Numbered from the stretch's first letter, positions 4,295 through 63,625 are shown. The stretch is 64,000 bases of DNA from Gemmatimonadales bacterium (GCA_036741715.1 DAINRR010000005.1:25203-89202), one strand, 5' to 3'. Translations and numbers: made by a program. Notes: generated from the sequence alone by a model not told the origin.

Positions 4295-4309
4295 GATCTT
4301 CGTCTCCGT

Positions 4310-32528: not shown

Positions 32529-34820
32529 ATGAGCACCTCCCCCGCAATCCATCTCAGGCTCTTCGGGAGCCCCTCGCTCGAGCGGGAGGACGGGAGTGTG
32601 CTCGCAGGGCGCGCCGCCCAGCGGCACCGCCTCGCCCTCCTCGCCCTCCTCTCGCTCGCCCCCGGTCATCGCATCAGCCGCGACAAGCTCATGGCCTGGC
32701 TCTGGCCCGAGGCCGACGGCAAGCGTGCGCGCAATCTGCTCAACGTCTCGACGCATGTGCTGCGCGGCGTTCTCGGCGAGACCTCGATCGTCTCGGCGGG
32801 TGAGGACCTGCGACTGGATGTGGCCGCGGTGCGGCCGGACGTGGCCGAATTCGAGCGCGCGATGCAGGCGGGAGACGAGGAGAGCGCGGTCGCACTCTAT
32901 CGCGGACCGTTCCTGGACGGGTTCTTCCTCCCCGAGGCGGAGGAGTTCGACCAGTGGAGCGGCCGGGAGCGACAGCGGCTGGCCGATATATATGGAAAGG
33001 CACTCGAGGGTCTGGCCGAGCGGGCCGAAGCCGCCGGTGACTTCGGCACCGCGGCCGTGCGGTGGCGCGCGCGGGCGGCGCACGATCCGCTGGATTCGCG
33101 CGTTGCCCTTCGCCTGATGCGGGCGCTCGATGCCAGCGGAAATCCGGCGGCCGCGATTCAGCACGGGGCGGCGCATGCCCGCCTCCTGAGCGAGGAACTC
33201 GGCTCGAGCGCCCCCGAAGTCACCGCCCTGTCTGACCACCTTCGCCGCCATCCCCGGCCCCATCCGTTCCCGGAACGGCCCGTCATCGGCAGCCCGGCGT
33301 CGGAAGCGCCGACACCCGTGCCGGCGCACGAGGCCCCTCGGCCGCGGCAGCTTCCATTCCCCCGCTGGGCAGCCGCTGCAGCCCTCGCCGTCGTCGCGCT
33401 GTCGTTCACTGCCTGGCTCGCCGTTGCCGGCGCGCCCGCGGCCGATCCGTCGATCGTCGTCCTGCCGTTCGCGAATCTCGCGCCCGGCGCGGCCCCCGAT
33501 TATCTGAGCGACGGGCTCACCGACGAGATCATCGCCGGCCTGGCGACCGTCCCGCGACTCACCGTCATCGCGCGCAATTCCGCAGACCGCTATGCGAGCT
33601 CCGTGGCCACCCTTCCGGAGATCGCACGCGAGCTCGGCGTCTCGCATGTGCTCCATGGCACGGTCCGCCCGGAGGGAGGCCAGGTACGGGTCACGGCGCG
33701 TCTCGTCGCGGCCGAGCGGGAGCGCGTCGTGTGGGCGCAGACGTACGATGCGCGCGAGGGGCAGCTCGCGCGGATTCAGGACGACATCGGGCGGGATGTC
33801 GTGCGCGCGCTCAAGCTCGAGCTGGTGGGGGACAGCGCGCCGGCGCAGCGGGGCACGCGCAATCCAGAGGCGTACGAGCTCTACCGCCGGGGACGGTTCC
33901 ATTGGGCCACGCGCACCCGCGAAGGTCACGAGGCGGCCATCGCCTATTTCGAGCGCGCGATCGCCCTCGATTCGAACTACGCGGATGCGTACGCGGCGCT
34001 CGCCGACGCCCACCTCACGAGCCGGCGGCTCGGCATGAGCCCGCACTCGGAGGAGGAAGCCCAGGCGCTGGTGACGCGCGCCGCGGAACGGGCGCTCGCG
34101 CTCGACGACGCATCGGCCGACGCGCACAACGCCTTCGCCAACGTCCTCTGGTGGCAGAAGAACTGGCCCGGCGCGGAGCGGGAGCTCCGGCGCGCACTCG
34201 AGCTCAACCCGAACCATGCCGGTGCGCACAACTTCTATGCACTCCTCCTCCACGGCATGGGCCGCCAGCAGGAAGCGCTGAGCGAGGCCCGGCGCGCCGC
34301 CGAGCTCGATCCGTTCGCGATGATGGTCGTCATGACCTACGGCTTCCTGTGTTACGTGACGGACGACCTGGAGTGCGCGATCGAACAGTTCGACCGGGTG
34401 GTCGAGCTGAACCCCGCATGGGGAATCGCCCTGCGCCGCAAGGCGATCGTACAGGCCATGCTGGGGCAGCACGCCGAGGCGCAGGCGAGCATTCGCCAGG
34501 CTCATGAAGTCGAGCCGGACAATGCGTACGGGCTCATCGATCGCGCGATCGTTCTCGCCCTCGCCGGCGATACCGCCGCTGCGCGAGCCGCGCTCCGGGC
34601 TGCGGAAGGCGCCACGGGATCGACCGTCGACTTCAATCTCGCGCGGGCCTACACCACCCTCGGCGACCGGGACAGCGCCTTCGCGGCCCTCGAGCGCTAC
34701 GATGGCTGGCTCTGGCCCGGCGTCAGCGCGCTCGCCGAGCCGCTGTTCGATCCGATCCGCACCGATCCGCGGTTCGTGGCGCTGGAAGACCGGGTGCTGC
34801 GGGAAATGGGCGTGAGGTAG
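32529..34820 (+). CDS. SARP/BTAD-family transcriptional regulator: winged-helix + BTAD + TM + periplasmic TolB_N-like + TPR domains
   Basis: 'LRLFGSPSLE...QRHRLALLALLS...SRDKLMAWLWPE' is the OmpR-type wHTH. 'FERAMQAGD...YRGPFLDGF...EFDQWSGRERQRL' is the BTAD. One TM segment is AAALAVVALSFTAWLAV. 'VVLPFANL...LSDGLTDEIIAGL' and TPR repeats follow. Confidence 0.9.
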   Translation: MSTSPAIHLRLFGSPSLEREDGSVLAGRAAQRHRLALLALLSLAPGHRISRDKLMAWLWPEADGKRARNLLNVSTHVLRGVLGETSIVSAGEDLRLDVAAVRPDVAEFERAMQAGDEESAVALYRGPFLDGFFLPEAEEFDQWSGRERQRLADIYGKALEGLAERAEAAGDFGTAAVRWRARAAHDPLDSRVALRLMRALDASGNPAAAIQHGAAHARLLSEELGSSAPEVTALSDHLRRHPRPHPFPERPVIGSPASEAPTPVPAHEAPRPRQLPFPRWAAAAALAVVALSFTAWLAVAGAPAADPSIVVLPFANLAPGAAPDYLSDGLTDEIIAGLATVPRLTVIARNSADRYASSVATLPEIARELGVSHVLHGTVRPEGGQVRVTARLVAAERERVVWAQTYDAREGQLARIQDDIGRDVVRALKLELVGDSAPAQRGTRNPEAYELYRRGRFHWATRTREGHEAAIAYFERAIALDSNYADAYAALADAHLTSRRLGMSPHSEEEAQALVTRAAERALALDDASADAHNAFANVLWWQKNWPGAERELRRALELNPNHAGAHNFYALLLHGMGRQQEALSEARRAAELDPFAMMVVMTYGFLCYVTDDLECAIEQFDRVVELNPAWGIALRRKAIVQAMLGQHAEAQASIRQAHEVEPDNAYGLIDRAIVLALAGDTAAARAALRAAEGATGSTVDFNLARAYTTLGDRDSAFAALERYDGWLWPGVSALAEPLFDPIRTDPRFVALEDRVLREMGVR

Positions 34821-34832
34821 CCGCAGCACCAC

Positions 34833-34872
34833 TCGCCTGCCGCCGCCGGCGCGGGTCGGCAGAGGCAGGCGA
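34833..34872. terminator. GC-rich hairpin between convergent genes (candidate bidirectional terminator)
   Basis: TCGCCTGCC (34833-34841) pairs with GGCAGGCGA (34864-34872), and an inner GCCG...CGGC pairing is possible. It lies between the stop at 34820 (+) and the stop at 34881 (-). There is no clear U-tract. Confidence 0.4.
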
Positions 34873-34880
34873 GCGCCGGG

Positions 34881-35492
34881 TCAATGTACCCGCACCTCGC
34901 CGGTCATTCCCGCGTGCAGGTTGCACCGATACGGGAAGATGCCGCTGCTGGCGAAAGTGCGGCTCGCCGACGTGTTCTGGATCGGCGGGATGTCCGACGG
35001 GGCGCCCGCCGAGGTGAAATCCACGTCATGCTGGACGGCGGCGATCGTCCACGTCACTGCCCCTCCTGCCGCGATATCCACGACCCTCGGTGAAAAGAGC
35101 GTTTGGGGCGCCGTCACCGTCGCGGTGGCGGAAGCGGCTTCGACCGTCACCTGGGTCGTGCCGGTCGCCGTCGCGCCACCCAGGGTAATCGAGGCCGTGA
35201 TCTGCGCCATCCCGGGACCGACGCCCGTCACGGTCCCGTCTTCCGCGACGGTCGCCACGGCCGGGGCGCTGGTGGTGAACCCGAGGTCGCCTCCGCTTAC
35301 CGGCTGGCCATCGTCGTCCCGACCCACCACGGTCAGCTTGACCGTATTGCCGGGCGCGGCCGAGAAGAGCTCCGCTGCGTCGGGCGTGACATCGACGGTG
35401 GCGAGACCGCCACCCCCGCCGGGGCCGCTTTCCCCGCCGCACGCGGACACGAGGACGAGCACGATCGAGGCGAGAAGGAATCGAGCAGACAT
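34881..35492 (-). CDS. lipoprotein: Big_2 (bacterial Ig-like) domain + type-1 copper cupredoxin domain
   Basis: GGAGG before the ATG and lipobox 'VLVLVSAC'. Big_2 block is 'VTLTVVGRDDDGQPV...TVTGVGPGMAQITASI'. Cupredoxin ligands are 'VQHDVDF' ... 'YRCNLHAGMTGEVRV' (C-x2-H-x2-M). Confidence 0.85.
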   Translation of the reverse strand: MSARFLLASIVLVLVSACGGESGPGGGGGLATVDVTPDAAELFSAAPGNTVKLTVVGRDDDGQPVSGGDLGFTTSAPAVATVAEDGTVTGVGPGMAQITASITLGGATATGTTQVTVEAASATATVTAPQTLFSPRVVDIAAGGAVTWTIAAVQHDVDFTSAGAPSDIPPIQNTSASRTFASSGIFPYRCNLHAGMTGEVRVH

Positions 35493-35708
35493 GGTAACCT
35501 CCGGGGTTCAGAAGCCGTGGTATGCCACGCCGCCGGCACCGAGCCGGCAGGCGACGCGACATATTCGGCGCCCCCGGTGAACGGCCGCTGTCGGGCGGCT
35601 GTACCACCGGTGAACTCGGAGGATTGGGGGTAAGGCGGGTCCGGGAGGGAGGATGCAGGGAGGGTGCGGGTCGAAGCCGAGCGCGCGGGACGGAACTGGG
35701 GGAACCGC

Positions 35709-36596
35709 TCAGTCCCCCCGCGATGCGAGAAGCCGCTCCACCCCGCCGATCCCTCCATCGCCCCGCCACTCGAGCCGGCCGTCAGGCCCGAGCACGAAGA
35801 CCGTGGTCGCATGGTCCACGTCGCCGGTCGTCTCGTTGCGCCGCCGCGCGACCCCGAGGCTGTCGAGGACGGACTCGACGTCCTCGACCGTGCCGGAAAG
35901 AACGCGATCATTGGGACCCAGTTCCCAGTGCCGGGCCAGTGAGACCAGGCGCTCGGGGGTGTCCCGCCAGGGGTCGAGCGTGACGACGATGAGTGCGACG
36001 TCGGGGCGGTTCGAGCGCCGGCGGGCGGCACGGAGGTCGTTGACGACCAGCGGGCAGACCGTGGCGCAGTGGCCGAAGGCGAAGGTGACGAGTGCGGGAC
36101 GGCCCCGCCACTCCCCCAGGGAATAGCGCCGTCCATGCTGGTCCACCAGCCGGACGCCCGGCGCCTCGTGCTCGGCCGGACGCAGCGTGGCGAGATCCGG
36201 CGCGTACGCGACCCGCCCGCCTTCCCACGCCCGCGCAACACGCACACCGAGTGTGAGGGTGCCCACGACGGATGCCGCCGCCACGGTCAGTCCCGCGATG
36301 CGACGCCAGGGCGAAGCCCCCAGCCACGCCAGGTCGCGCCGGAGCCCGCGATTCCCGATGGCGAGGAGCATCCCGAGCATCCCGAAGGGCTCGCCGATCA
36401 GGATGATCCAGCCGCGCGTGTCCGGCAGTCCGCCCCGTTCCGATCCGAAGCACGCGGCGCGCGTCCGGGTAAGCCACTCCGGCTCCGCGGTCGCGGGCCA
36501 GAGCGCGAGCGCCCACCACGCTGCGGTGATCACGAGGATCGCCACGAGTGCGGTGAGCGCGAGCCCGGGCCGCTCGTCGCGGCCCGTCGCGTCCAT
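35709..36596 (-). CDS. SCO1/SenC-family copper chaperone fused to an N-terminal 3-TM domain
   Basis: Thioredoxin-fold block 'ALVTFAFGHCATVCPLV' (CxxxC) and 'DHATTVFVLGPDG'. Its ATG overlaps the subunit I stop by 1 nt (TGATG at 36594-36598). Confidence 0.85.
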   Translation of the reverse strand: MDATGRDERPGLALTALVAILVITAAWWALALWPATAEPEWLTRTRAACFGSERGGLPDTRGWIILIGEPFGMLGMLLAIGNRGLRRDLAWLGASPWRRIAGLTVAAASVVGTLTLGVRVARAWEGGRVAYAPDLATLRPAEHEAPGVRLVDQHGRRYSLGEWRGRPALVTFAFGHCATVCPLVVNDLRAARRRSNRPDVALIVVTLDPWRDTPERLVSLARHWELGPNDRVLSGTVEDVESVLDSLGVARRRNETTGDVDHATTVFVLGPDGRLEWRGDGGIGGVERLLASRGD

Positions 36597-38344
36597 CAGC
36601 CGATTCTCCAGAGGAAGCTCAGCAGCTTCCAGTTGGTGAAGTAGTAGAGCATGAAGGCGAGGAAGAAGATGCCCACGAGCACGAGCGTGCCGGGCGTCGG
36701 GCCGGCCCAGCCGCGCGCGGGGGCGTGCAGCTCTTCATTGAGCGCATCGGCGCCCGGGCCGTGCACTGGCGGGTTGGTGAGCCCCTGGGGAATACCGCGG
36801 ATCGGCTTCCCGCGCGGGAACTCGGTCACGCGCTCGCCAAAGAACACCGACGTGACCGCGATCAGGATGAAGGCGAAGGCCCCCGTCGCCGCGATGACGC
36901 CGCCGATTCCGACCATCGCCATGAAGAGGTCCACCACCGGGCTGAACGGCACGTCGTGCGCCGACTGCGCAAAGCTGATGTCCCAGTGCCGGCGCGGGAC
37001 GCCGAAGCTGCCGGCGAACGTCATGCCGAACTCGAGGAGCAGCAGCCCGCCGGCGAACAGGTACGGCTGGATCTTCGCGAGCCCCCAGAACGCCACCTTC
37101 CGCTGGAAGATGAGCGGCAGGAGGTAGTAGGTCGCGCCCATGAAGGCCACGGCCGTGCCGCTCACCACCGTCGCATGGAAGTGGCCCGGAATGCGCAGCG
37201 TGTTGTGCGCGATGATGTTGATCTGCTCGGTGCCGATCGTGACGCCGGTGATCCCGCCGAAGAAGCCGAACACGACGACCGAGAGCACGAGCGACGAGAA
37301 GCCGGGGTCGCCCCAGGGCGCCTTGCGCAGCCACTCGAACAGTCCCTTCGTGTACCCGCGCAGTCGCATGCCGAGCTCGAGCCCGGCCGGCACCGTGAAC
37401 CCGTGGATCATCGACGCCAGCACCGCCATGTACATGAAGTAGGAGGTGTTGACGATCTTCCACGCCGGCCCGAAGCCCGGGTCCACGAGGAGGTGGTGCG
37501 CCGAAGCCATCGAGATGAAGAGGATGTAGAGCACGAAGGCCCATCGGCTCACCTTCTCGTTCAGCACGACCGCACCCACGGTGAGCGCACCCAGCATGTA
37601 CCAGATCGCCACCATCGCCGCGACGTTGATCTGCTGGGCCGAGTGCCCGAGCCCCCACCAGAGGAGCCGGTACATCTGGGGATTGACGCTGTCGACGAGG
37701 CCGATGGACCAGAGGAAGGTGGGGATGTAGACCATCGCCCCATGGAGCAGCGTGATGACGGCGATGATGGCCGCGGTCATCGCGCCGTAGACGACGAGCG
37801 GCATCGATCCTTCGTACGTCCGCTCGCGCTTCGCGATCGTGAGCGTCACGAAGAACTGGCCCACGACGCTCAGCGCGCCGACGGCGAAGAGGATGATGCC
37901 GAGATAGAAGAGCGGGTGCGCCTTGAGCGGCGGATACGAGGTGTAGAGCACGTCCGCCTTGCCGCTCCACTGCATCGCCTCGACCATCAGCGACCCGACC
38001 ACCATCAGCCCGAAGTTGAACCAGCCGTACCGCGGTGCCGCGGGTCGCGCGTTGAGCAGCACCGTGGCCGCGAACCAGAGCACCGCCATCTCGAAGAAGA
38101 TGATGAAGAAGATCAGCATGTTCATCCCGTGCACGCCGAGAATGCGGTAGTACCACTCGGCGGGCAGGAGATGGATCGCCTGCCAGCGGGTCAGCGCGAG
38201 GAGCAGGGCCGCAACGGCGCCGATCAGGAGCGCCACCACCGACACCACGGCGTTCGCGCGGATGAGGCGCTCCGCCTGCAGGTCGATGCGCCGGGTCGTG
38301 ATCGGGCAGGTCCGCACGGGGCGCTCGAGGGCCGTCGTGGTCAC
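36596..38344 (-). CDS. heme-copper oxidoreductase subunit I, ba3 (B-family)-like but lacking the helix-VI cross-link tyrosine
   Basis: Start is GTG 38344 (GGAGG 6 nt upstream), overlapping the subunit II stop (GTGA). Blocks 'YYRILGVHGMN', 'VLYTSYPPLKAH', 'LWWGLGHSAQQ', 'SAHHLLVDPG', 'NTLRIPGHFHATV' run collinear with ba3 subunit I. The track ORF 36596-39004 over-extends the N-terminus. Confidence 0.9.
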   Translation of the reverse strand: MTTTALERPVRTCPITTRRIDLQAERLIRANAVVSVVALLIGAVAALLLALTRWQAIHLLPAEWYYRILGVHGMNMLIFFIIFFEMAVLWFAATVLLNARPAAPRYGWFNFGLMVVGSLMVEAMQWSGKADVLYTSYPPLKAHPLFYLGIILFAVGALSVVGQFFVTLTIAKRERTYEGSMPLVVYGAMTAAIIAVITLLHGAMVYIPTFLWSIGLVDSVNPQMYRLLWWGLGHSAQQINVAAMVAIWYMLGALTVGAVVLNEKVSRWAFVLYILFISMASAHHLLVDPGFGPAWKIVNTSYFMYMAVLASMIHGFTVPAGLELGMRLRGYTKGLFEWLRKAPWGDPGFSSLVLSVVVFGFFGGITGVTIGTEQINIIAHNTLRIPGHFHATVVSGTAVAFMGATYYLLPLIFQRKVAFWGLAKIQPYLFAGGLLLLEFGMTFAGSFGVPRRHWDISFAQSAHDVPFSPVVDLFMAMVGIGGVIAATGAFAFILIAVTSVFFGERVTEFPRGKPIRGIPQGLTNPPVHGPGADALNEELHAPARGWAGPTPGTLVLVGIFFLAFMLYYFTNWKLLSFLWRIG

Positions 38345-38946
38345 AGGGCACCTCCATGCTCGATGCCGGCCGGCTTGTCGGCCACGGTGTTCCCGACCGA
38401 GTCCACCACGATCACGCGGCCCACCATCGTGTGGTGGCCGATCCCGCAGAACTCGTTGCAGATGATGCGGAAATCGCCGGACGAGGTGGGCGTCACGCGC
38501 AGGGCGTAGTCGAAGCCGGGCACGACGGCGAAGTTGATGTTCAGCGGATAGAGCGAGAAGCCGTGGTTCACGTCGAGCGCGGAGAGGTGGAGCATGTACT
38601 CCTTCCCCTGCTCGAGCTGCAGGATCGGATACCACTGGTAGGTGAGCCCCACGAGATAGACATCGGCGCCCGGCGGCGGCGCGGCGATCGGCATGCCGGC
38701 GTCGGTGCCGATCTCGTACTGCTTCGCGAACTCCACCGTGCGCTGGTAGAAGGCGCGGGGCTCCACGCGGCTCCGGACGCCGGCCGGATTCTGTCCCCCC
38801 TTCCAGTGCCAGAGCGGCATCATCGCGAAGAGCACGATGCACCAGGCGAACGCGATCGAGACCCAGATCCGCTCCGCCTTGTGCGCCGGTTTCCACCACA
38901 CGCCCGGGACCGGATCGATACCGGTATGGACCTTGGTCAGCGGCAT
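38341..38946 (-). CDS. heme-copper oxidoreductase subunit II with CuA centre
   Basis: One TM segment (IWVSIAFAWCIVLFAMMPLW). CuA ligands are 'DVNHGFSL' and 'ICNEFCGIGHHTM' (C-x-E-x-C-G-x2-H-x2-M). GGAGAA lies before the ATG. Confidence 0.9.
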   Translation of the reverse strand: MPLTKVHTGIDPVPGVWWKPAHKAERIWVSIAFAWCIVLFAMMPLWHWKGGQNPAGVRSRVEPRAFYQRTVEFAKQYEIGTDAGMPIAAPPPGADVYLVGLTYQWYPILQLEQGKEYMLHLSALDVNHGFSLYPLNINFAVVPGFDYALRVTPTSSGDFRIICNEFCGIGHHTMVGRVIVVDSVGNTVADKPAGIEHGGAL

Positions 38947-38955
38947 GCCGTTCTC

Positions 38956-39129
38956 CTAGGGAAGCGTGGCGGCGGGGAGGGAGACGATCTCCCAGAGGCC
39001 CCACCCGGTGAAGACGACGAGCATCACGAGCACGCCGAGGAAGAGCAGCAGGTACATGTTGTCGAAGACGCGCTGGCCGAGCGGGATCCGCTCACCGGCA
39101 TCGTCGTGGGGAGGGACTGACGGATCCAT
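38956..39129 (-). CDS. 57-aa single-TM peptide upstream of subunit II (not in ORF track)
   Basis: Hand translation gives ATG 39129 ... TAG 38958-38956. The product is MDPSVPPHDDAGERIPLGQRVFDNMYLLLFLGVLVMLVVFTGWGLWEIVSLPAATLP. GAGG lies 6 nt upstream and overlaps the Rrf2 stop region. It is packed 9 nt from both neighbours. It falls below the track length cut-off. Confidence 0.6.
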   Translation of the reverse strand: MDPSVPPHDDAGERIPLGQRVFDNMYLLLFLGVLVMLVVFTGWGLWEIVSLPAATLP

Positions 39130-39138
39130 GCGGCTACC

Positions 39139-39582
39139 TCACTTGGGTGAGCGGGTCAGGGCGTGCAGTCGGTGCCGTCTGGTCGCGACCGAATCCTCGA
39201 GCAGCGTGGCGATGGTCGTGGTGGTGAAATAGTTCTCGACCGTGCTCGCGACTTCGCTCCAGCGGGCGTGGGCCGCGCAGGGATTGCGGTCGCCGCAGGT
39301 CGGGCGGCCAAGCAGGCAGCGGAGGCCCGGCCGGGAGAAGGGCGCGATCACCACGGCCAGCGTCAGACGCTCGGGAGCGTGCGCGAGCCGGAAGCCACCG
39401 CGAGGGCCTCGCTCCGACGTCAGGACGCCGGCGCGCGACAGTGCGTGCAGGACCTTCGAGAGGTAGTTCCGCGGGAAGCCGGTCGCTGCCGCGATGCCGT
39501 CCACGCGGAGCGGCTCCCCACCCTCCCGCGCAACACAGAGGACGGCGTGAATCGCCTGCTGGGCCGTGCTGGAAAGCCACAT
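39139..39582 (-). CDS. Rrf2-family transcriptional regulator with three-Cys Fe-S cluster motif (NsrR/IscR-like)
   Basis: wHTH block 'AQQAIHAVLCVAREGGEPLRVDGIAAATGFPRNYLSKVLHALSRAGVLTSERGPRGGFRL'. Cys motif is 'RCLLGRPTCGDRNPCAAH' (C-x6-C-x5-C). Confidence 0.9.
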   Translation of the reverse strand: MWLSSTAQQAIHAVLCVAREGGEPLRVDGIAAATGFPRNYLSKVLHALSRAGVLTSERGPRGGFRLAHAPERLTLAVVIAPFSRPGLRCLLGRPTCGDRNPCAAHARWSEVASTVENYFTTTTIATLLEDSVATRRHRLHALTRSPK

Positions 39583-39611
39583 TCGATCGATGTCCGGGGG
39601 GAGGTACTGGA

Positions 39612-39633
39612 TTTATCATGCATTCATGATAAA
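39612..39633. promoter_or_regulatory. perfect 9-4-9 AT-rich inverted repeat, candidate Rrf2 operator in the divergent intergenic region
   Basis: TTTATCATG (39612-39620) - CATT - CATGATAAA (39625-39633). It lies in the 53-bp gap between Rrf2 ATG 39582 (-) and TTG 39636 (+), the only AT-rich patch locally. Confidence 0.5.
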
Positions 39634-39635
39634 CT

Positions 39636-41228
39636 TTGCGCAAGACCCTCGTGCGAATCCTTGAACGCGGTGCCCGACGCCTCCTCGGCGCTCTCGACGC
39701 CGGCGCCACCCGTGCCTGGGGATGGCGCTGGAATCCGCTGCACCAGAGCGGCACCATCGCCGTCGCCATGCTGCTGGCGCTCCTGGCGACGGGCATCTAC
39801 CTCGTCTTCGTCTATCGCGTCGGCGCTCCCTCCGCGTCCGTGGCTCGCATCGCCGCCGACCCGTGGCTCGGCGGCTGGATCCGGAGCCTGCACCGCTACA
39901 CGTCCGATCTCTTCATCGTCGCCGCGGCGCTCCACTTCCTCCGCATGTTCGCGCAGGCACGAAGCTGGGGCCCGCGCCGGCTCGCGTGGATCTCGGGTCT
40001 GATGCTGCTCGGCGCCGGCCTCGTCTGCGCCTGGACCGGCTTCGTGATGGCGTGGGACAGCTTCGGCGAGCGCCTCGCGCGCGAAGGGGCGCGGCTGCTC
40101 GACCTGCTCCCTGTGCTGTCGGAACCGCTGAGCCGCCTCTTTGCGGGAGACCGGCCGCTGCCGGACGCGTTCTTCTTCGTCAACCTCTTCGTGCACATCG
40201 GGCTGCCGCTCGCGATGGGAGCCCTCCTCTGGCTGCACGTCTCGCGCGTCGCGCGACCGGTGCTGCTGCCGCCGAAGCGCATCACGTGGACGATCCTCGC
40301 GGCGCTCACGGTCACCGCAGTGCTCCTTCCTGCCCCGCTCGGTCCGGCAGCCGATCCGTTCCGGCTTCCCTTCGACACGCCGACCAATCTCTTCTCCGCC
40401 TGGTGGCTGCCGTTCACCGAGCGGATGTCGCGCGGCGCCGTGTGGGGCGTCGGGCTGGGCCTGTCCGTCGCGCTCCTGCTCGTGCCGCGATTCACGCGGC
40501 GGCCGCGCGTCGAGCGCTGGGCGCCGAGCGTCGTGGATCCGCGGCTCTGTACCGGGTGCAACCAGTGCCCGCAGGACTGTCCGTGGGATGCGATCACGAT
40601 GGTCGAGCGGGACGACGACCGCCCGTCGCTCGTGGCGCTCGTGAATCCGGCGCGCTGCGTGAGCTGCGGCATCTGCGCCGGCTCCTGCCCGCCGATGGGC
40701 GTCGGGCCCCCGGGACGTACCGGGCGGGATCAGCTCGCTGCGGCGCGGGTGGTGATCGGTGCGGGGCTCGGGGACGCGGGGCGCGAGGGGGTGGGGGCGG
40801 GCAGTATCGTCGCCATCTGCTGCAGCATGGCGCCCGATTCCCATGTGGTGGCCCTCCGCGAGCGTGGCGCACACGTCCACCAGGTCACGTGCGTCGGCAA
40901 TCTCCATTCGTCGGTCGTGGAGACGTTCGTGCGGAGCGGCACGCCGGGAGTGGTGATCTGCGGTTGCCCGCCGCGCGACTGCGTCGGCCGCGAGGGGCCG
41001 AAGTGGCTGCACGAGCGCCTGTTCAACGCGCGCGAGGCCGAGCTCAAGCCGCGGGTCGATCGCCGGCGCGTCCGGACACTGACGCTCGCGCCGGGCGCGC
41101 GCGGCGAGGCACTTGCCGGGTACGACGCCATCGCACGCGATTTCGCGGCGCTCGATCTGCCGGGCGCCGAGCAGGTCGAGCCGGATCTCGTGTGCGTTCC
41201 GGTGCCGCTGGAGGAGGAGGATCGATGA
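39636..41228 (+). CDS. fusion protein: di-heme cytochrome b (N-terminal domain type) + 2x[4Fe-4S] ferredoxin + MvhD/FlpD-like domain
   Basis: Heme ligand pairs are 'SLHRYTSDLFIVAAALHFL' and 'FVHIGLPLAMGALLWLHV' (each H-x13-H). Two further TM segments follow. Then come 'CTGCNQCPQDCP' and 'CVSCGICAGSCP', then 'IVAICCSMA...VTCVGNLHSSVVETFVRSGTPGVVICGCPPRDC'. The start is uncertain (TTG 39636; GTG 39651 is possible). Confidence 0.85.
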   Translation: MRKTLVRILERGARRLLGALDAGATRAWGWRWNPLHQSGTIAVAMLLALLATGIYLVFVYRVGAPSASVARIAADPWLGGWIRSLHRYTSDLFIVAAALHFLRMFAQARSWGPRRLAWISGLMLLGAGLVCAWTGFVMAWDSFGERLAREGARLLDLLPVLSEPLSRLFAGDRPLPDAFFFVNLFVHIGLPLAMGALLWLHVSRVARPVLLPPKRITWTILAALTVTAVLLPAPLGPAADPFRLPFDTPTNLFSAWWLPFTERMSRGAVWGVGLGLSVALLLVPRFTRRPRVERWAPSVVDPRLCTGCNQCPQDCPWDAITMVERDDDRPSLVALVNPARCVSCGICAGSCPPMGVGPPGRTGRDQLAAARVVIGAGLGDAGREGVGAGSIVAICCSMAPDSHVVALRERGAHVHQVTCVGNLHSSVVETFVRSGTPGVVICGCPPRDCVGREGPKWLHERLFNAREAELKPRVDRRRVRTLTLAPGARGEALAGYDAIARDFAALDLPGAEQVEPDLVCVPVPLEEEDR

Positions 41229-41848
41229 TCCGAAGCGCCGGCCGGAGCATCGCGACGATCGTCGTCAGCGCGGCCGCCGCGATGGGTATTGCCGCCGGAT
41301 CGGGGGTCGCGGTGCCGTACCACGCCGATGACGCCGCGCGCCTCCGGCTCTCATGGAGCGCGCGGCCGGAGCGGATCGAGCAGTGCCGCACGCTGTCCGA
41401 AGAGGAGCTCGCGCTCCGGCCGGAGCACATGCGCCAGCGCATCGAGTGCGAGGGCGGCTTCGCGACCTACGCGCTGGCGATCGCGATCGACGGCCGGCGG
41501 GTCGACGAGGCGGTGCTCCTGGGCGGCGGTGTTCGCAACGACCGGCCGATCCACGACCTCAGGGACCTCGATGTCTCGCCCGGCCGGCACCGGGTGCAGA
41601 TCTCACTCACGCGGCGCGAGGCCGATGCGTCGGGAGACGAGGACGACGATGAGGATGACGACGACGATGCCGGCATCTCCGCCGACCGCGCGCAGCGCGA
41701 GCGGACGGAGCGCACGCGCCGCCAGCGCGCGGCGCTTCCGGCGGCGGTGACGCTCGATACGACGATGGTGCTTGAGGCCGGCCGGGTCGCGGTCATCACC
41801 TTCGATGCCGGGCGGCGCAGCTTCATGATCGTGCCGGGTGCGCCCTGA
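41225..41848 (+). CDS. membrane-anchored hypothetical protein with poly-acidic insert
   Basis: ATG 41225 overlaps the stop of the cytochrome b fusion (ATGA). N-terminal anchor is IATIVVSAAAAMGIAAG. Acidic run is 'SGDEDDDEDDDDDAG'. This is only the last 207 codons of track ORF 39722-41848. Confidence 0.65.
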   Translation: MIRSAGRSIATIVVSAAAAMGIAAGSGVAVPYHADDAARLRLSWSARPERIEQCRTLSEEELALRPEHMRQRIECEGGFATYALAIAIDGRRVDEAVLLGGGVRNDRPIHDLRDLDVSPGRHRVQISLTRREADASGDEDDDEDDDDDAGISADRAQRERTERTRRQRAALPAAVTLDTTMVLEAGRVAVITFDAGRRSFMIVPGAP

Positions 41849-43807
41849 GCTCGCCAACTTCGCCAGCCGGAACGCCACGACGTAGTCCCCTTCCCCGAAC
41901 GGCCCCCCTCCCCCGACCGCGATCGCCACGAACTGCTCGCCGGTCGCGAGCTGCCACGTCATCGGCGTCGCCTTCCCGCTCTCGGGAAGCGGGCCGCGCC
42001 AGAGCTCGCGTCCGCTCTCGATGTCGTACGCCTTGAGCGAGCGATCGAGCGCTGCGCCGATGAAGACCAGGCCACCCGCCGTCGTGATCGGGCCGCCGAG
42101 GTTGATCGAGCCCCAGTCGGGCGGCAGCGGTGTGCCCTCCGGAACCAGGCGCTCGAGCGAGCCGAGCGGGACCGTCCAGCGATGCTTTCCGGTGTCGAGA
42201 TCGATCGCGACGAGCGCGCCGAACGGGGGCGGGGTGCACGGAAGGCCGGATGGCGCGCGCAGCAGGCGCCGCCGCATCACGTACGGCGTCCGGCTCATGA
42301 TGTTGTATTCGTAGCCCAGGCCGAGCCGCTCGCTCTCCGCCTCCGCCGCGTCGAAGTCCACCGACTCGCGCGGAAGCAGCTGCACTTCGGCCGCGATGCG
42401 ATTGACGGGCACGACGGCGATCCGCCGCACCGGGTCCCACGCGAGCCCGCCCCAGTGCGCGCCGCCGATGTTGGACGGCATGACGAGCGTGCCCTGGGTG
42501 TCCGGAGGCGTGAAGATCCCCTCGTTCCGGAGCGGCGCGATCATGGCGCGACAGGCCGCACGGTCCGCCTCGGCCGCGCCCCAGGCGTCGTCGGCCGTGA
42601 AGGCGTGCGGACTGAGCGGCGCGATGCCCGTCGTGAACGGCTGCGTCCGCGACGCCTCCTCACCGGGGATCCGGCTTGCCGGCACGGGGCGCTCTTCGAC
42701 GGGAAAGAGCGGCTCGCCGGTTTCGCGGTGCAGCACGAAGAGCATGCCGGTCTTCGTCGCCTGCAGCACGGCGGGGACCTCGACGCCATCGCGCACGAGC
42801 ATCACGAGCGCAGGCGGGGCCGCGTTGTCGTAGTCCCAGAGATCGTGGTGCACGCTCTGGAACGACCAGACGCGCTTGCCGGTCGAGGCGCGGAGTGCCA
42901 CGAGCGAGTTGGCGTAGCGGTTGTCCCCGAGCCGGAGCGCCCCGTAGTAGTCGGGCGCGGCGCTGCCGGTCGGAATGAAGACGAGATCGCGCTCGGCGTC
43001 CGCCACCAGGACCGACCAGGCGTTGGCTCCGCCGGTTCCGTGCGCGAGCTTGCCGCGCCAGTCGCCGAAGGCGGGGTCGGCCGAATCCTGCGGAATCGGG
43101 TCCCAGCTCCAGCGCAACGCGCCGGTGCGCGCGTCGTACGCCCGCACCTCGCCGCTCGGCAGGTCGGGGCGGGTGTTGTCGCCGATCGACGAGCCGGTGA
43201 TCACGAGATCGTTCACGACCGCGGGCGGCGACGTCATCGTGTACGCCGCCGGCTCGAACGGCGCGATGCGGAGGCCGCGCGTGAGGTCCACGATGCCGTT
43301 CTCACCGAACCGGCGGCAGACCGACCCGCTCGCCGCGTCGAGCGCGATGAGCTGCGACTGCGCGGTCGCGACGAAGATGCGGCGGCGGCACGGCGCGCCG
43401 CTTGCCGCCTTCGGATCCACCCACAGCGATACGCCGCGGCTCGCGAAATCTCCATAATCGACATCGCGGCGGATCTTCGGGTCGTAGACCCACCGTTCGC
43501 GGCCCGTCGCGGCGTCGAGCGCGATCACCCGGCCGAGCGGCGTGCCGATGTACATCAGACCCTCGTGCACGAGAGGCGTCGCCTCGAAGGAGGCAGGGGT
43601 CGACGTGGCGTAGGCGGGCCCCGACTCGCCCGTGCGGTACGTCCATGCGACGTGCAGGCGAGTCACGTTCTCGCGAGTGATCGCGGCCGCGGGCGAGTGG
43701 CGCGTGCCGCCGGCGTCGCGACCGTTCGCTTCCCAGCCGATTTCCTGCGCGGCGGCGGACGCGTTGACGGTGATCAGGGCGGCCGCGAGAGTGATCAGGC
43801 ATTTCAC
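41603..43807 (-). CDS. PQQ-dependent dehydrogenase (quinoprotein glucose/alcohol dehydrogenase family), secreted
   Basis: Propeller blocks are 'TRHSPAAAITRENVTRLHVAWTYRTG', 'EATPLVHEGLMYIGT', 'GANAWSVLVADAERDLVFIPTGSAAPDYYG', 'SVHHDLWDYD', 'GGAHWGG', 'LKAYDIESGRELW'. Start set to GVG-type GTG 43807 ((M)KCLITLAAALITVNASAAAQE, GGAGCG upstream). The track start is 43852. The last roughly 86 codons (41606-43863 region end, i.e. 41606-41863) are a doubtful extension; see findings. Confidence 0.85.
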   Translation of the reverse strand: MKCLITLAAALITVNASAAAQEIGWEANGRDAGGTRHSPAAAITRENVTRLHVAWTYRTGESGPAYATSTPASFEATPLVHEGLMYIGTPLGRVIALDAATGRERWVYDPKIRRDVDYGDFASRGVSLWVDPKAASGAPCRRRIFVATAQSQLIALDAASGSVCRRFGENGIVDLTRGLRIAPFEPAAYTMTSPPAVVNDLVITGSSIGDNTRPDLPSGEVRAYDARTGALRWSWDPIPQDSADPAFGDWRGKLAHGTGGANAWSVLVADAERDLVFIPTGSAAPDYYGALRLGDNRYANSLVALRASTGKRVWSFQSVHHDLWDYDNAAPPALVMLVRDGVEVPAVLQATKTGMLFVLHRETGEPLFPVEERPVPASRIPGEEASRTQPFTTGIAPLSPHAFTADDAWGAAEADRAACRAMIAPLRNEGIFTPPDTQGTLVMPSNIGGAHWGGLAWDPVRRIAVVPVNRIAAEVQLLPRESVDFDAAEAESERLGLGYEYNIMSRTPYVMRRRLLRAPSGLPCTPPPFGALVAIDLDTGKHRWTVPLGSLERLVPEGTPLPPDWGSINLGGPITTAGGLVFIGAALDRSLKAYDIESGRELWRGPLPESGKATPMTWQLATGEQFVAIAVGGGGPFGEGDYVVAFRLAKLASSGRTRHDHEAAPPGIEGDDRDPAGLKHHRRIERHRRRKRRALAARALRPLALRAVGGDAGIVVVILIVVLVSRRIGLAPRE

Positions 43808-43824
43808 GAATGCACGCTCCGGTC

Positions 43825-44754
43825 TCAGTGCAGAGGCTTCTCGTAGCGCCACACCGTGATCGCCACGATCCCTTCAGGCGTCGTCAGGTTGCTCACGACC
43901 TCGCCCGTCCGGCGCCATCCGCTCTTCTCGTAGAAACGGGCGGCGCGATGGTTGCCGATGGCGCAGTCGAGCCACGCCACGGTGAAACCCCGCGCCACGA
44001 GCTGCCGTTCCGCGTCGGCGATGAGCGCGGAGGCCACGCCGGCGCCTCGGGCGCGGGCCGAAACGTAGAGCTGGTTCAGCTCGCCACCCTTCAGCATGTG
44101 AAACCCGCGCGGATCGCGGGGCGGGCCGGCAACGCGGACATCCGATAGGGCCGCCGAGAGGCGTTCCGCGAACCGCTCCGGGGTACGATCGCGCTTCAGC
44201 TCCTCGGGGAGGATGGCAGCGTGGGCATCCTGCCAGCCGTCGAACCAGAGGGCGGCCAGGGGCTCGATGTCAGCGGGGCTCGCGTCGCGGACGGCGACGC
44301 TGCCCTCGACGAGTCGCGCCAGCTTCCCCAGCGACAGCCGCCAGCCGAGCTCGTTGTCGGCCGGCGACAATCCGGAAGGAAGCCCGGCGTGGACAGCGAC
44401 GAGCTCGGTCCCGCCATCCCGATCGGCGAGCGAGAACGTCACCGTCATTTCGCCCTGCATCGTCGGATCCTGCGTTTCGAACTCGACGGTGTGCACGACC
44501 CGCTCGCCGGGCACGAGCTCGAGGTAGCGCCCGTGCCAGGTATCGGTGTGTGCGGTGGTCTTTCCCGCCGGCCCGGGCTCGTCATAGGTGAGCGAGACGC
44601 GGATCCGCCCGCCCGCGCGCGTATCGAGCTCGTGCACTTCGCTCGACATGCCGTCGGGGACCATCCAGGCGCGCAGCGACTCCGCCTCGACGAGGGCGCG
44701 GTAGACGGCGCTGCGCGGAGCGGCAATATGCCGGATGAGGCGAGTCGATGACAT
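43825..44754 (-). CDS. fusion of SRPBCC/AHSA1-like domain and GNAT acetyltransferase domain
   Basis: The N-terminal half has 'RHIAAPRSAVYRALVEAESLRAWMVPDGM...VTFSLADRDGGTELV'. The C-terminal half has 'LYVSARARGAGVASALIADAE...NHRAARFYEKSGW'. Start is ATG 44754 (the track uses TTG 44760). Confidence 0.85.
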   Translation of the reverse strand: MSSTRLIRHIAAPRSAVYRALVEAESLRAWMVPDGMSSEVHELDTRAGGRIRVSLTYDEPGPAGKTTAHTDTWHGRYLELVPGERVVHTVEFETQDPTMQGEMTVTFSLADRDGGTELVAVHAGLPSGLSPADNELGWRLSLGKLARLVEGSVAVRDASPADIEPLAALWFDGWQDAHAAILPEELKRDRTPERFAERLSAALSDVRVAGPPRDPRGFHMLKGGELNQLYVSARARGAGVASALIADAERQLVARGFTVAWLDCAIGNHRAARFYEKSGWRRTGEVVSNLTTPEGIVAITVWRYEKPLH

Positions 44755-44763
44755 CGGCAACTC

Positions 44764-46860
44764 TCACTCGAGATTCATCGCGCGCATCAGCGCCTGGAAC
44801 CGCGGATGCTCGCGGAGCGGCACGAAGAGAAACGATCCCTTGATGCTGTAGGTCGGTCCCGTGCGATCGGCAACCGCCCGCTCGAGGTAATCGAGCGCCC
44901 GGTCCGGTTCACCGAGGCCGGTGTGGATGTAGGCTAAATGGTATGGCGAGACGAACTCCCGCCCGGCGCGCTCCTCGAGCTCGCGGAGGAGCGCGCGCGC
45001 TTCCGCGACCCGGCCATCCATGCCGAGCATTTCCCCGAGCTGCGCGACCCAGAGCGGCGTCCGCGCCGAGCATTCGACGGCCCGCTCCAGCTCGGCGATG
45101 CCGCCTTCGCGGTCGCCGGTGAGGAAGCGGGCCCAGCCGAGGGTTGCGCGGGCGCGCGGGTGGTCCGGCTCGACCTCGACGACCTGCCGGACGTTCACGA
45201 GCGCCTCATCATACCGCCCGGCGCGGAGGAGCATCGTGGACATGTCCGTTCGATTCGCGGCCGGATCGAGCTCCTGCGCCTGCCGGCCGAGCGGGATCGC
45301 TTCCTCGAACCGGCCCGTCGCCCAGCAGAGGCGCGCCAGAAGATCGATCGCGTACCCGCTGCCGGGGCTCAGCTCGACGGCGCGCCGCAGCCCCGCCTCG
45401 GCCGTGCGCCAGTCGAAGTCCGCGACCATCCTCAGGTAGCCCCGGGTGGCGTGCGCGTCGCTCAGGTCGGGCGCGAGCTCGAGGGCGCGCGCCGCGGCGA
45501 CGGTGGCGCACGCGAAAAGCTCCTTGGTCGGCCTCGCCGCCAGCTCCGCAAGCTCGACGAACGTCATCGCGAGGAGCGAGTGCGCGAGGGCGAATCCGGG
45601 ATCTCGCGCGATCGCCGCCCCGAGCAGCGTCACGGCGCGCTCCATTTCGGGCGCCGTGAACTGGATGAACGCCTGCCGGCCCCGGAGGAAGAGGCGGTAC
45701 GCCTGGATGTCCTGCGTCGGCTCCGCGCGCACGCGGCCCCGCTCGTCGGGGGAGAGCTCGGCCCGGAGCGCGGCGGCGATCTGCAGCGCGAGGTCGGTCT
45801 GGATCGCGAAGATGTCGCTGATCTCGCGATCGTAGGTCTCGCTCCAGAGGGGCCGCCCCGACGCCGCATCCAGGAGCGTCGCCACGACGCGCACGCGATT
45901 CCCCGCATGACGCACGCTGCCATCCAGGACGGTCCGGACGCCGAGCGCCGCGGCGATCTCCCCGACCGGTCGGTCGCGGGAGCGGAACGGCATGACGGAC
46001 GATCGGGCGATGACGCGCAGCGACCGGATCTTCGAGAGATGCGCAATCACGTCCTCGGTGACGCCGTCGGCGAAGTACTCCTGCTCGCCGGCGCCTCCGA
46101 GACCGAGGAACGGCAGCACCGCCACGGATGGCATCGGGGCCGCCGCCGCGGGGGCGCGGCGCAGCTCGTCGGCAAGCGCCTGCACCGCGGGCTCGGGCGG
46201 AAGTTCGAGGTCCTTCCGCACGCGGTGTGCGTGATCCGCGGCATGACGGAGCGCGGCAGGACGGTCACCCCCGGCGTCGAGGGCGCGCATGAGGCGGCAG
46301 GCGTGGTGGGCGGAGTGCGGATCGAGTGCGGCCAGCCGGCGGGCCGCAGCGAGGCGCGCAGCGATGTCGCCCGACCGCTCCGCGGCGTCGCCGGCCGCGA
46401 CAAGGATGCGCGCGTATTCCGCGGCGAGCTGGCTCCGCCGCGCATCGAGCCACTGCATGAACTCGGACGACTCGGGGAGATGGAACCCCTCGAGGAGCGT
46501 GCCGGCGTACGCCTGTGTGGCGGCTTCCGCATCGCGGGCGGCGAGCGCGGCGCGGAGCTCGTGGAAGTCGCACTGGACGCCGGCGGGCTCGAAGACGAGA
46601 CCATCCCCTACCGACCGGATGACCCCTTCGCCGAGCGCGCCGCGGAGAACGTGGACGGAAAGGTTGAGGAGCCGCCGGGCGGCCGCATCGTCGCGCTCGG
46701 GCCAGAGGAGTGCGAAGGCGCGATCGCGGGCGAGCGGCCGCGGCCAGGCGTCAATGACGAGCGTGAGGAGTGCAACGCGGTGGCGCTGCGACGGCGGGCC
46801 GCTCAGCACCGTGTCGCCGGCGCGGAGGCAGGCCCCGCCGAGGAGGGAGATCGCAATCAT
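44764..46860 (-). CDS. SARP/BTAD-family regulator with periplasmic TolB_N-like and TPR domains (paralogue 2)
   Basis: wHTH 'QRHRVALLTLVIDAWPRPLARDRAFALLWPE', BTAD 'FHELRAALAARD...YAGTLLEGFHLPESSEFMQWLDARR', then 'VAVLPFLGLGG...FADGVTEDVIAHL' and TPR repeats. Confidence 0.9.
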   Translation of the reverse strand: MIAISLLGGACLRAGDTVLSGPPSQRHRVALLTLVIDAWPRPLARDRAFALLWPERDDAAARRLLNLSVHVLRGALGEGVIRSVGDGLVFEPAGVQCDFHELRAALAARDAEAATQAYAGTLLEGFHLPESSEFMQWLDARRSQLAAEYARILVAAGDAAERSGDIAARLAAARRLAALDPHSAHHACRLMRALDAGGDRPAALRHAADHAHRVRKDLELPPEPAVQALADELRRAPAAAAPMPSVAVLPFLGLGGAGEQEYFADGVTEDVIAHLSKIRSLRVIARSSVMPFRSRDRPVGEIAAALGVRTVLDGSVRHAGNRVRVVATLLDAASGRPLWSETYDREISDIFAIQTDLALQIAAALRAELSPDERGRVRAEPTQDIQAYRLFLRGRQAFIQFTAPEMERAVTLLGAAIARDPGFALAHSLLAMTFVELAELAARPTKELFACATVAAARALELAPDLSDAHATRGYLRMVADFDWRTAEAGLRRAVELSPGSGYAIDLLARLCWATGRFEEAIPLGRQAQELDPAANRTDMSTMLLRAGRYDEALVNVRQVVEVEPDHPRARATLGWARFLTGDREGGIAELERAVECSARTPLWVAQLGEMLGMDGRVAEARALLRELEERAGREFVSPYHLAYIHTGLGEPDRALDYLERAVADRTGPTYSIKGSFLFVPLREHPRFQALMRAMNLE

Positions 46861-63389: not shown

Positions 63390-63625
63390 CGTGAATTGTC
63401 GGGAATGCGGGGATGATTCGACGTACCGTTTCAATGTACCGCGCCCGACCGCGCCCCGCTCGCGGCCGCGCGGCGACGCCGGCACACCCTGCCTAACACC
63501 TTCGCGCACACACACTTCGCTCAGGTGAAATCCAGGCGAAGCCGAGGTGAGCGCGCCTCGTAGCATTCCCTCGTCGGTCGACGGCACTTCCGCCGCCGCC
63601 CCGCCACCATCACGACGAGGGCACC

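Follow-up and report, generated by a model that had tools for sequence, protein, structure and literature searches.

The locus described here lies in a 64,000-nt stretch of DNA from a Gemmatimonadales bacterium (GCA_036741715.1, DAINRR010000005.1:25203-89202; the whole stretch is hereafter called the window, and positions are counted from its first letter). It is built around six same-strand genes encoding an Rrf2-family regulator, a 57-aa peptide with a single transmembrane (TM) segment, subunits II and I of a heme-copper enzyme, a SCO1-type copper chaperone, and a lipoprotein in which a Big_2 immunoglobulin-like domain is joined to a cupredoxin; two further genes diverge from the regulator on the opposite strand (Table 1). 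Open reading frame (ORF) listing was combined with direct reading of the sequence, window proteins were scanned with Pfam and NCBIfam models, and TM segments were located by hydropathy. Codon-position GC content backs all six minus-strand ORFs as genes, and both reading and listing bear out the coordinates and spacings reported for them in a preliminary description of the stretch: from the regulator to the cupredoxin, successive genes are 9 nt and 9 nt apart, overlap in GTGA and in TGATG, and are then separated by a gap of 216 nt. Judged from sequence, the locus probably encodes an eNOR-type nitric oxide (NO) reductase of a Gemmatimonadota bacterium together with an assembly factor and a regulator, a reading to which we assign a probability of about 0.75.

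Table 1. Genes and features of the window discussed in the text
Feature	Position	Strand	Evidence and remarks
Rrf2-family transcription factor	39139-39582	minus	first operon gene; Pfam Rrf2 3e-27
57-aa single-TM peptide	38956-39129	minus	ORF listing, hydropathy
Predicted eNOR subunit II, CuA	38341-38946	minus	Pfam COX2 at cut-off
Predicted eNOR subunit I, GTG start	36596-38344	minus	Pfam COX1 1e-62
SCO1/SenC chaperone with three-TM N-terminal domain	35709-36596	minus	Pfam SCO1-SenC 4.5e-22, residues 149-274
Big_2-cupredoxin lipoprotein, operon neighbour	34881-35492	minus	Big_2 24 bits, Copper-bind 19.5 bits
Candidate Rrf2 operator palindrome	39612-39633		perfect 9-4-9 inverted repeat
Cytochrome b-2[4Fe-4S]-MvhD fusion	39636-41228	plus	Pfam Cytochrome_B, Fer4_7, FlpD
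207-aa anchored protein	41225-41848	plus	no Pfam family; start overlaps cytochrome b-FeS stop (ATGA)
NirK lipoprotein, class II (AniA/Geobacillus-type)	4310-5410	minus	PDB 3wi9 1e-67

The heme-copper subunits and the proteins encoded with them

The best matches of subunit I among solved structures are B-family enzymes, namely Thermus thermophilus ba3 and the Aquifex-type structure 7deg (~1e-48), with A-family structures following at 1e-7 or worse. Its metal- and heme-binding histidines, as aligned to solved structures, are His72, His234, His283, His284, His388 and His390, corresponding to one heme ligand on helix II, two on helix X and three ligands of the active-site metal, and all six are kept in homologues except in the Thermus sequence GHFK, where lysine replaces the low-spin heme histidine; the same His-to-Lys exchange is found in some eNORs (PMC11214002). 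What distinguishes the protein from ba3 is the active-site segment: subunit I GHSAQQ aligns to ba3 GHPIVY, so that Gln238 stands opposite, and takes the place of, the cross-linked Tyr237. The residue at this site differs by family, being tyrosine in oxygen reductases, glutamate in cNOR and qNOR, asparagine in sNOR and glutamine in eNOR (PMC8756737, Table A4), and four Tyr-less families related to the B family and possessing CuA-type second subunits have been described (PMC11214002). The pattern GH-x2-QQ-xN shows no variation among the homologues, which come from Gemmatimonadota, Acidobacteriota, Alphaproteobacteria, Thermomicrobium and Thermus; when plasmids were searched by tblastn with subunit I, homologues of 53% identity were returned in Defluviimonas, 50% in Thermomicrobium roseum and 44-49% on Thermus megaplasmids. 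In the region of the ba3 K-channel, a Ser and a Thr of the VPSLMTAFT segment and a Tyr 15 residues past the CuB histidine are kept, and other positions differ.

The nearest full-length relatives, compared as representatives of 50%-identity clusters, fall into three classes: a QQ class that includes the window protein, a QY class that has the tyrosine (39-43% identity), and a ba3-like VY class (~30%). Four representatives (P0327, P0328, P0332 and P0342) carry GH-x2-QY-xN and have a helix II FFE motif in common with the QQ group; they are possibly an oxygen-reductase sister group or a transitional form.

Conservation of the surrounding genes was evaluated by a survey restricted to one genome per species, in which the best 80 loci (subunit I 73-97% identical) were taken from more than 500 relatives and searched by tblastn with each window protein; nearly all are from Gemmatimonadota metagenome-assembled genomes, and some are from Vicinamibacterales. 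In each surveyed locus of adequate length the order peptide-II-I-SCO is identical, and SCO directly follows subunit I in 79 of the 80. Clustering of the genes in the 5 kb downstream of SCO found none common to more than 9 of 47 loci, and the conserved operon therefore ends at SCO. The Rrf2 gene lies between the operon and the divergent gene in 42 loci and beyond that gene in 14; in a further 17, among which are all of the Vicinamibacterales loci, no Rrf2 gene was detected. Such a survey had been proposed in the preliminary description, which asked if Rrf2, the peptide, the SCO fusion and the Big_2-cupredoxin accompany homologues of subunit I: the peptide and SCO do, Rrf2 does so in the adjacent or displaced positions just given, and the cupredoxin does not. 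Five surveyed loci (L002, L005, L060, L065 and L067; subunit I 74-89% identical) come from bins labelled Bacillota, Acidobacteria or Bifidobacteriaceae, and some of these contigs are probably mis-binned.

Subunit II consists of one TM helix and a periplasmic cupredoxin domain, as read from hydropathy and sequence. Its CuA motif, H-x34-C-x-E-x-C-x3-H-x2-M, is complete, as had been claimed, and is kept in 79 orthologues. The best solved structure is ba3 subunit II (2.6e-18), in an alignment that spans the TM helix and the CuA loop. T. thermophilus ba3 (1XME/1EHK), with its single-TM subunit II, is thus the top structural match for both window subunits (I, 1e-48; II, 3e-18), from which it differs in its His-Tyr cross-link and in reducing O2. 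In the ba3 gene order, too, a gene for a small TM peptide lies ahead of subunit II. The 57-aa peptide of the window has its TM segment at residues 27-45 and is conserved in 68 related loci, and in Alphaproteobacteria, Thermomicrobium and Thermus the gene immediately before subunit II encodes a homologue of 33-47% identity; with E13, D23, LLL27-29, W43, G44 and P52 invariant, the peptides form one conserved family that extends from Gemmatimonadota to Thermus (four phyla), and the single TM segment and the position before subunit II are seen in five lineages. Searches of Pfam and of PDB sequences (E<=10) gave no match to the peptide, and none to ba3 subunit IIa in particular, so that the link to IIa is one of gene position. 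On this positional match the peptide is a probable small third subunit of the enzyme.

The chaperone is a fusion, as previously noted, of a SCO1 domain bearing HCATVCP to an N-terminal domain with three TM segments, which hydropathy places at residues 12-30, 62-80 and 100-118. The copper site of the thioredoxin-like SCO domain, made up of the CxxxC of HCATVCP and His262, is intact; these residues and an N-terminal WWALALWP...AACF motif are kept in 73 orthologues; Cys49, in a periplasmic loop of the N-terminal domain, is also conserved.

The Rrf2 regulator and its candidate operator

The regulator has the putative Fe-S ligand pattern C-x6-C-x5-C-x2-H, comprising Cys89, Cys96, Cys102 and His105, each at least 95% conserved among 56 orthologues. 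The three cysteines had been pointed out before, and the conserved histidine three residues past the last of them had been missed. The accompanying label, NsrR-like, does not hold up. Among NCBIfam models the Rrf2 superfamily model alone passes; the NsrR model NF008240, whose cut-off is 182 bits, gives 23.6 bits and covers residues 27-80 only, and the IscR model TIGR02010 gives 56 bits against a cut-off of 207. The closest solved structures are IscR-type, with His105 aligned to IscR His107 in 4hf0. The ligands of E. coli IscR follow the pattern C-x5-C-x5-C-x2-H. The window Rrf2 gene has no isc or suf context, its neighbors being respiratory genes. Identification of the protein as an NsrR orthologue was rejected on the basis of the NsrR score far under cut-off, the higher IscR score and the Cys3His pattern. 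The window regulator resembles NsrR and IscR in its winged-helix Rrf2 fold, in the Cys cluster near its C-terminus and in having an AT-rich palindrome of ~22 bp, the candidate operator, within the promoter region of its own gene, but fails both equivalog models and combines IscR-like ligands with an NsrR-like genomic context.

The palindrome TTTATCATG-n4-CATGATAAA, previously picked out as a possible target of the regulator, is centered in the 53-nt divergent intergenic region and ends 2 nt before the cytochrome b-FeS start codon. It is the single such site in the window, where 0.16 are expected by chance; a search of the remaining sequence, the regions in front of NirK and the cupredoxin gene among it, gave no copy with <=3 mismatches. 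In other loci a related site, of consensus TTTATCATATCGACATGATAAA, occupies the same place, and the operator can be written TTTATCAT-n6-ATGATAAA. We know of no published NsrR or IscR consensus to which TTTATCAT-n6-ATGATAAA corresponds. Scored as present at <=4/16 mismatches, the operator is found in 39 of 42 loci with Rrf2 adjacent, in 12 of 14 with Rrf2 displaced, in 6 of 17 with Rrf2 undetected, and in none of 400 control windows; this covariation of operator and Rrf2 gene supports binding of Rrf2 at the palindrome. Four Rrf2-less Vicinamibacterales loci (L060, L064, L065 and L075) do not have the TTTATCAT...ATGATAAA operator and have in common, between the cytochrome b-FeS and peptide genes, an ATGAC-n4-GTCAT-like inverted repeat, possibly the site of a CRP/FNR-type regulator.

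In the mechanism that these features suggest, Rrf2 probably carries an Fe-S cluster on its Cys3His ligands and probably binds the 22-bp palindrome, a position from which it would control the operon that it leads (Rrf2-peptide-II-I-SCO) as well as the two genes on the opposite strand. NO is a possible signal, at not far below an even chance: because the ligands are IscR-like and NsrR models are unmatched, it is context that makes NO sensing plausible. Control of NO-metabolism genes by the window Rrf2 would parallel NsrR. Rrf2 genes also flank eNOR in Thermus, in Hyphomicrobium and in an alphaproteobacterial-type metagenome contig (L094), and those beside alphaproteobacterial eNOR operons have NsrR as their best model, at 105-132 bits; one such operon follows nirK-nirV. 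The Thermus locus, with its Rrf2, DUF542, cytochrome P460 and multicopper oxidase genes, points toward nitrogen oxides as well. Alternatively, Rrf2 could report Fe-S status, O2 or redox state, as IscR and RsrR do, so that the module is switched on under microoxic or iron-replete conditions. This proposal, a real possibility though well short of even odds, fits the Cys3His scheme and the ranking of the two model scores, and is in keeping with the expression of eNOR by Rhodothermus marinus only under microoxic conditions (PMC11214002). It is opposed by the failure of the IscR model itself, by the missing isc/suf context, and by the NsrR-type regulators beside the same operon in Alphaproteobacteria; moreover, NO can react with the Fe-S cluster of an Rrf2 protein whatever its type.

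The divergent cytochrome b-FeS unit and the Big_2-cupredoxin

The preliminary description regarded the six genes as a self-contained module in which electrons pass from the cupredoxin to CuA. This omits the two divergent genes, which are conserved and have the candidate operator in common with the operon. The first encodes a cytochrome b (helices A-F, with two H-x13-H heme motifs) followed by a 2x[4Fe-4S] ferredoxin domain and an MvhD/FlpD-like domain, and every one of the 73 loci that reach far enough has it, at 51-86% identity. In the PDB the family profile matches cytochrome b6 (4e-26), MvhD (2e-8) and, through helix F, mitochondrial cytochrome b, as well as the ferredoxin domains of FwdF and HdrA. 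His86, His100, His187, His201 and the cluster cysteines are invariant, and hydropathy gives about six TM segments; the Fe-S domains would be cytoplasmic if the cytochrome b topology holds. The paired histidines agree with the four-helix bundle that binds two b hemes in bc1/b6f complexes. The cytochrome b of those complexes works with a Rieske protein and a c-type cytochrome; here neither a Rieske nor a cytochrome c gene was found in the conserved neighborhood, the cytochrome b being fused instead to the ferredoxin and MvhD domains. The second gene follows directly in 65 of the 80 loci, and its 207-aa product, in which Cys54 and Cys74 are invariant, carries an anchor or signal segment at the N-terminus. 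Its 3' end (to 41848) is convergent with, and overlaps by 246 nt (41603-41848), a minus-strand ORF for a pyrroloquinoline quinone (PQQ)-dependent dehydrogenase (41603-43852), the final ~80 codons of which resemble read-through past the usual C-terminus.

Both genes recur in alphaproteobacterial operons, in which the order is a 59-60-aa peptide, II, I, heme o synthase, SCO, cytochrome b-FeS-FlpD, a 167-173-aa protein and hemerythrin. The in-operon cytochrome b-FeS homologue is full-length and 34% identical to the window protein, and the 167-173-aa protein is homologous to the 207-aa protein at the equivalent place (five loci: L082, L084, L085, L093 and L094). Within 8 kb of the Thermus and Thermomicrobium eNOR genes no homologue of either protein was found. 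Flanking the eNOR genes of Thermus thermophilus plasmid pTthSNM6-6b (L083:2182-12193) are genes for Rrf2, DUF542, cupin-type, YwiC-like and cytochrome P460 proteins, a cytochrome c, a radical SAM protein and a 450-aa multicopper oxidase. For Ferrigenium straubiae, whose eNOR operon is expressed under denitrifying conditions, the cytochrome b/[Fe-S] genes beside the operon were called 'rather unusual' (10.64898/2026.01.22.701106). That operon resembles the present one in eNOR II-I, sco1 and neighboring genes with cytochrome b and Fe-S domains; however, such genes occur here in every adequately sampled Gemmatimonadota or Vicinamibacterales locus and in Alphaproteobacteria, and the FAD and NADH domains of the Ferrigenium version, which was compared by description and not by sequence, are not seen here. 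Cytochrome b-FeS genes are the rule beside eNOR in several phyla and, as far as homology indicates, the cytochrome b-FeS and 207-aa unit is a conserved companion of eNOR across phyla.

By its topology (helices A-F, then cytoplasmic clusters) the cytochrome b-FeS-MvhD protein would most likely be a transmembrane electron wire that supports eNOR by joining a redox partner in the cytoplasm to the quinone pool or the periplasmic side. We tentatively extend this to a broader proposal, itself still rather doubtful: the cytochrome b(A-F)-2[4Fe-4S]-MvhD and 207-aa proteins may be a dedicated, co-regulated redox module of eNOR, a Rieske-less, bc-derived wire distributed from Gemmatimonadota and Acidobacteriota to Alpha- and Betaproteobacteria, which would couple periplasmic NO reduction to quinol oxidation or to a cytoplasmic partner, and both halves of which would be controlled in Gemmatimonadota by the Cys3His Rrf2. 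A different role, as maturation factors of eNOR (for example in heme modification or metal insertion) and not in electron supply, appears somewhat unlikely. It would account for the position of both genes among biogenesis genes (heme o synthase and SCO) downstream of the structural genes in Alphaproteobacteria, and for a window operon that has no heme a synthase though eNOR contains, and needs, heme As, which is made, as far as is known, in an O2-dependent way (PMC11214002; 10.64898/2026.01.22.701106); CuA enzymes, furthermore, are usually fed by soluble periplasmic carriers and not by cytochrome b. However, the cytochrome b-FeS protein is composed of domains typical of electron transfer, and none that is recognisably catalytic is among them; the related Ferrigenium protein with FAD and NADH domains is a proposed quinol:NAD+ oxidoreductase (10.64898/2026.01.22.701106); and the missing homologues near Thermus and Thermomicrobium eNOR mean that the two proteins are not universally required.

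The Big_2-cupredoxin is a genuine two-domain lipoprotein, as described earlier: its AlphaFold2 model has a predicted local distance difference test (pLDDT) score of 90, the two domains match Big_2 and amicyanin folds, and the copper domain matches amicyanin and plastocyanin with a target TM-score of ~0.7, its Pfam Copper-bind score being just below the cut-off of 21.2. In the family, which comprises ~80 clusters and is seemingly limited to Gemmatimonadota, the lipobox Cys18 and the ligands of the H...C-x2-H-x2-M motif are conserved (His155, Cys190 and Met196 invariant, His193 >90%). Its membership in the module, in contrast, is not sustained. The protein is encoded in none of the 80 related loci, including one with a 97% identical subunit I, and the SCO-cupredoxin-BTAD arrangement of the window is kept only in an 81%-identical relative. 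Homologues lie elsewhere, upstream of three-domain multicopper oxidases, beside extracytoplasmic-function (ECF) sigma/kinase genes, beside a BTAD regulator, or alone. Immediate upstream position relative to 483-490-aa three-domain multicopper oxidases is seen in L087:7001-9057 and in a tandem pair at L088:7001-9867, which suggests a laccase-like oxidase as the usual partner of the family. A conserved partnership with NirK was considered and dropped, since the multicopper oxidase next to the homologues has three domains and, at 32% identity over 109 residues, is no orthologue of NirK. Three paralogous BTAD+TPR regulator genes of ~700-830 aa lie in the window, at 32529-34820 (plus), 44764-46860 (minus) and 61083-63587 (minus); one window BTAD gene is convergent with the cupredoxin gene, and in L092 a BTAD gene adjoins a cupredoxin homologue.

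These results bear directly on the idea that the six genes make up a complete path by themselves, with the Ig-tethered cupredoxin as the dedicated CuA donor, co-expressed under NO control. The gene is on the same strand, 216 nt after SCO, and the spacer contains no terminator-like site and no significant RNA folding (z = -1.36); a scan of 34600-39800 for promoters and terminators returned zero promoters and one terminator-like site, which is intragenic, fewer than in shuffled sequence, and an Rfam search of 34500-42000 gave no match. Its product is a well-formed, membrane-tethered type-1 copper protein, its adjacency to SCO persists in the 81%-identical relative, and cupredoxins are established donors to CuA enzymes and to NirK. 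Against these points stand its absence from the surveyed loci, in which nothing is conserved past SCO, the different neighbors of its homologues, its own GGAGG ribosome-binding site, and the lack of an operator copy nearby, so that a dedicated path is unlikely. In the present bacterium CuA or NirK may still receive electrons from the cupredoxin; conservation gives no support to this. The nearest analogy is the Laz/AniA system of Neisseria, in which a cupredoxin is likewise lipoprotein-tethered through a spacer and the organism's NirK (of AniA type, as here) is also a lipoprotein. Unlike Laz, the window protein has a folded Big_2 domain instead of a low-complexity linker as its spacer and an amicyanin-like instead of an azurin-like cupredoxin, and its conserved neighbors elsewhere are laccase-like multicopper oxidases.

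Nitrogen-oxide context and probable assignment to the eNOR family

The NirK lipoprotein reported for the window is a genuine class II copper nitrite reductase; it scores 196 bits with TIGR02376, below the cut-off of 296, and has the lipobox FLAAC followed by a long Ala/Pro/Gly-rich linker. A gene for a soluble glucose/sorbosone dehydrogenase (GSDH, PF07995, 9e-141) lies 15 nt downstream of NirK on the same strand (region 3134-5410). NosZ and further denitrification genes were not found among the other large window genes by Pfam scans. NirK homologues occur within 10 kb of the operon in 6 of the 80 loci, and the nitrite-reductase link drawn in the preliminary description is strengthened by L094:1-9579, a JGI metagenome contig of alphaproteobacterial type, in which nirK (TIGR02376, 375 bits), an FGE-sulfatase (nirV-like) gene and an Rrf2 gene (best model NsrR) directly precede the same operon. 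That operon comprises a 60-aa peptide, eNOR II, eNOR I, UbiA, SCO, cytochrome b-FeS-FlpD, a 173-aa protein and hemerythrin, and a perfect FNR-type box, TTGATCTAGATCAA, is found at ~2428-2441, upstream of the peptide gene.

The preliminary description did not recognise its gene combination as a described operon type; however, the eNOR family has been published (PMC11214002, PMC8756737; 10.64898/2026.01.22.701106). The window enzyme probably joins this family as a new member, and eNOR operons with sco1 were published before; a 2026 preprint calls operons of eNOR II, eNOR I, heme o synthase and sco1 'a very common observation', and describes these genes together with a 'scaffold' gene as the common eNOR operon (10.64898/2026.01.22.701106). 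Like the family, as represented by R. marinus, the window locus has a B-family subunit I with Gln, a subunit II with CuA, an operon that includes sco1, and a connection to genes for nitrite reductase; homologues of the window enzyme at 44-53% identity are present in Thermus, Thermomicrobium and Alphaproteobacteria. Further traits that define the family are heme As in both sites and a non-heme Fe at the active site. The family is reportedly to be credited to Hemp and Gennis in 2008 as well as to Murali et al. in 2024 (PMC11214002). The window operon differs from it in having no heme o/a synthase, in having Rrf2 in the lead, in a cytochrome b-FeS gene that is divergent and not in the operon, and in a SCO with a three-TM N-terminal domain.

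It is conceivable, at a very low probability, that the enzyme is an unusual B-family oxygen reductase and not an NO reductase. Public records label subunit I as cytochrome c oxidase subunit I, the six histidines and CuA are all present, and close relatives exist that retain the tyrosine. On the other side, Gln replaces the catalytic Tyr in every member of the clade, genome context ties the enzyme to nirK, nirV, NsrR-like regulators and FNR-type boxes, and the characterised eNOR, that of R. marinus, reduces NO and could not reduce O2 (PMC11214002). Public annotation of every subunit I homologue reads 'cbb3-type' or 'b(o/a)3-type cytochrome c oxidase subunit I'; genome surveys that go by product name will therefore miss these NO reductases.

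Several observations nevertheless weigh against the eNOR assignment, or against parts of it. The GH-x2-QY-xN relatives that contain the tyrosine are barely more distant than some Tyr-less ones, and function may therefore have shifted inside the clade. Subunit I is placed in the eNOR family by its diagnostic residue, B-family affinity and CuA, and not by a tree with the R. marinus enzyme; the eNOR accession used in PMC8756737 is not among the listed cluster members of the Thermus homologue. A heme o or heme a synthase gene is absent from the window operon, though found in other eNOR operons, and the surveyed neighborhood contains no conserved periplasmic electron donor. NirK is 30 kb from the operon and does not have the operator. 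Finally, AlphaFold2 models the cytochrome b-FeS protein poorly (pLDDT 62), with Foldseek adding nothing beyond the sequence matches, and the topology given for this protein therefore comes from homology and hydropathy.

With these points weighed, the core of the preliminary description, a Tyr-less CuA heme-copper enzyme most likely reducing NO, served by a SCO chaperone and with Rrf2 putatively at the palindrome, is supported at the level of sequence. In such an eNOR, electrons would enter CuA from the periplasmic side and pass by way of the low-spin heme to the binuclear site, as expected from the family (PMC11214002), where the reaction would be 2 NO + 2 H+ + 2 e- -> N2O + H2O. SCO would load CuA, and the NirK lipoprotein would be the likely source of NO.

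The finding matters first for annotation, since databases routinely label eNOR genes as oxygen reductases, although in some sediments these genes rank with the most abundant and most highly transcribed of all those for NO reductases (PMC13592168). With eNOR beside NirK-type genes, Gemmatimonadota, a major soil phylum, would join the likely producers of the greenhouse gas nitrous oxide (N2O). The regulator and its operator form a sharply defined pair that is testable for NO or O2 sensing. The cytochrome b-FeS-MvhD protein, which travels with eNOR across phyla, bears on the electron donor of the enzyme and on maturation or energy coupling when O2 is scarce; if the redox-module proposal is true, it would be an undescribed means of feeding, or of conserving energy from, a CuA-type NO reductase.

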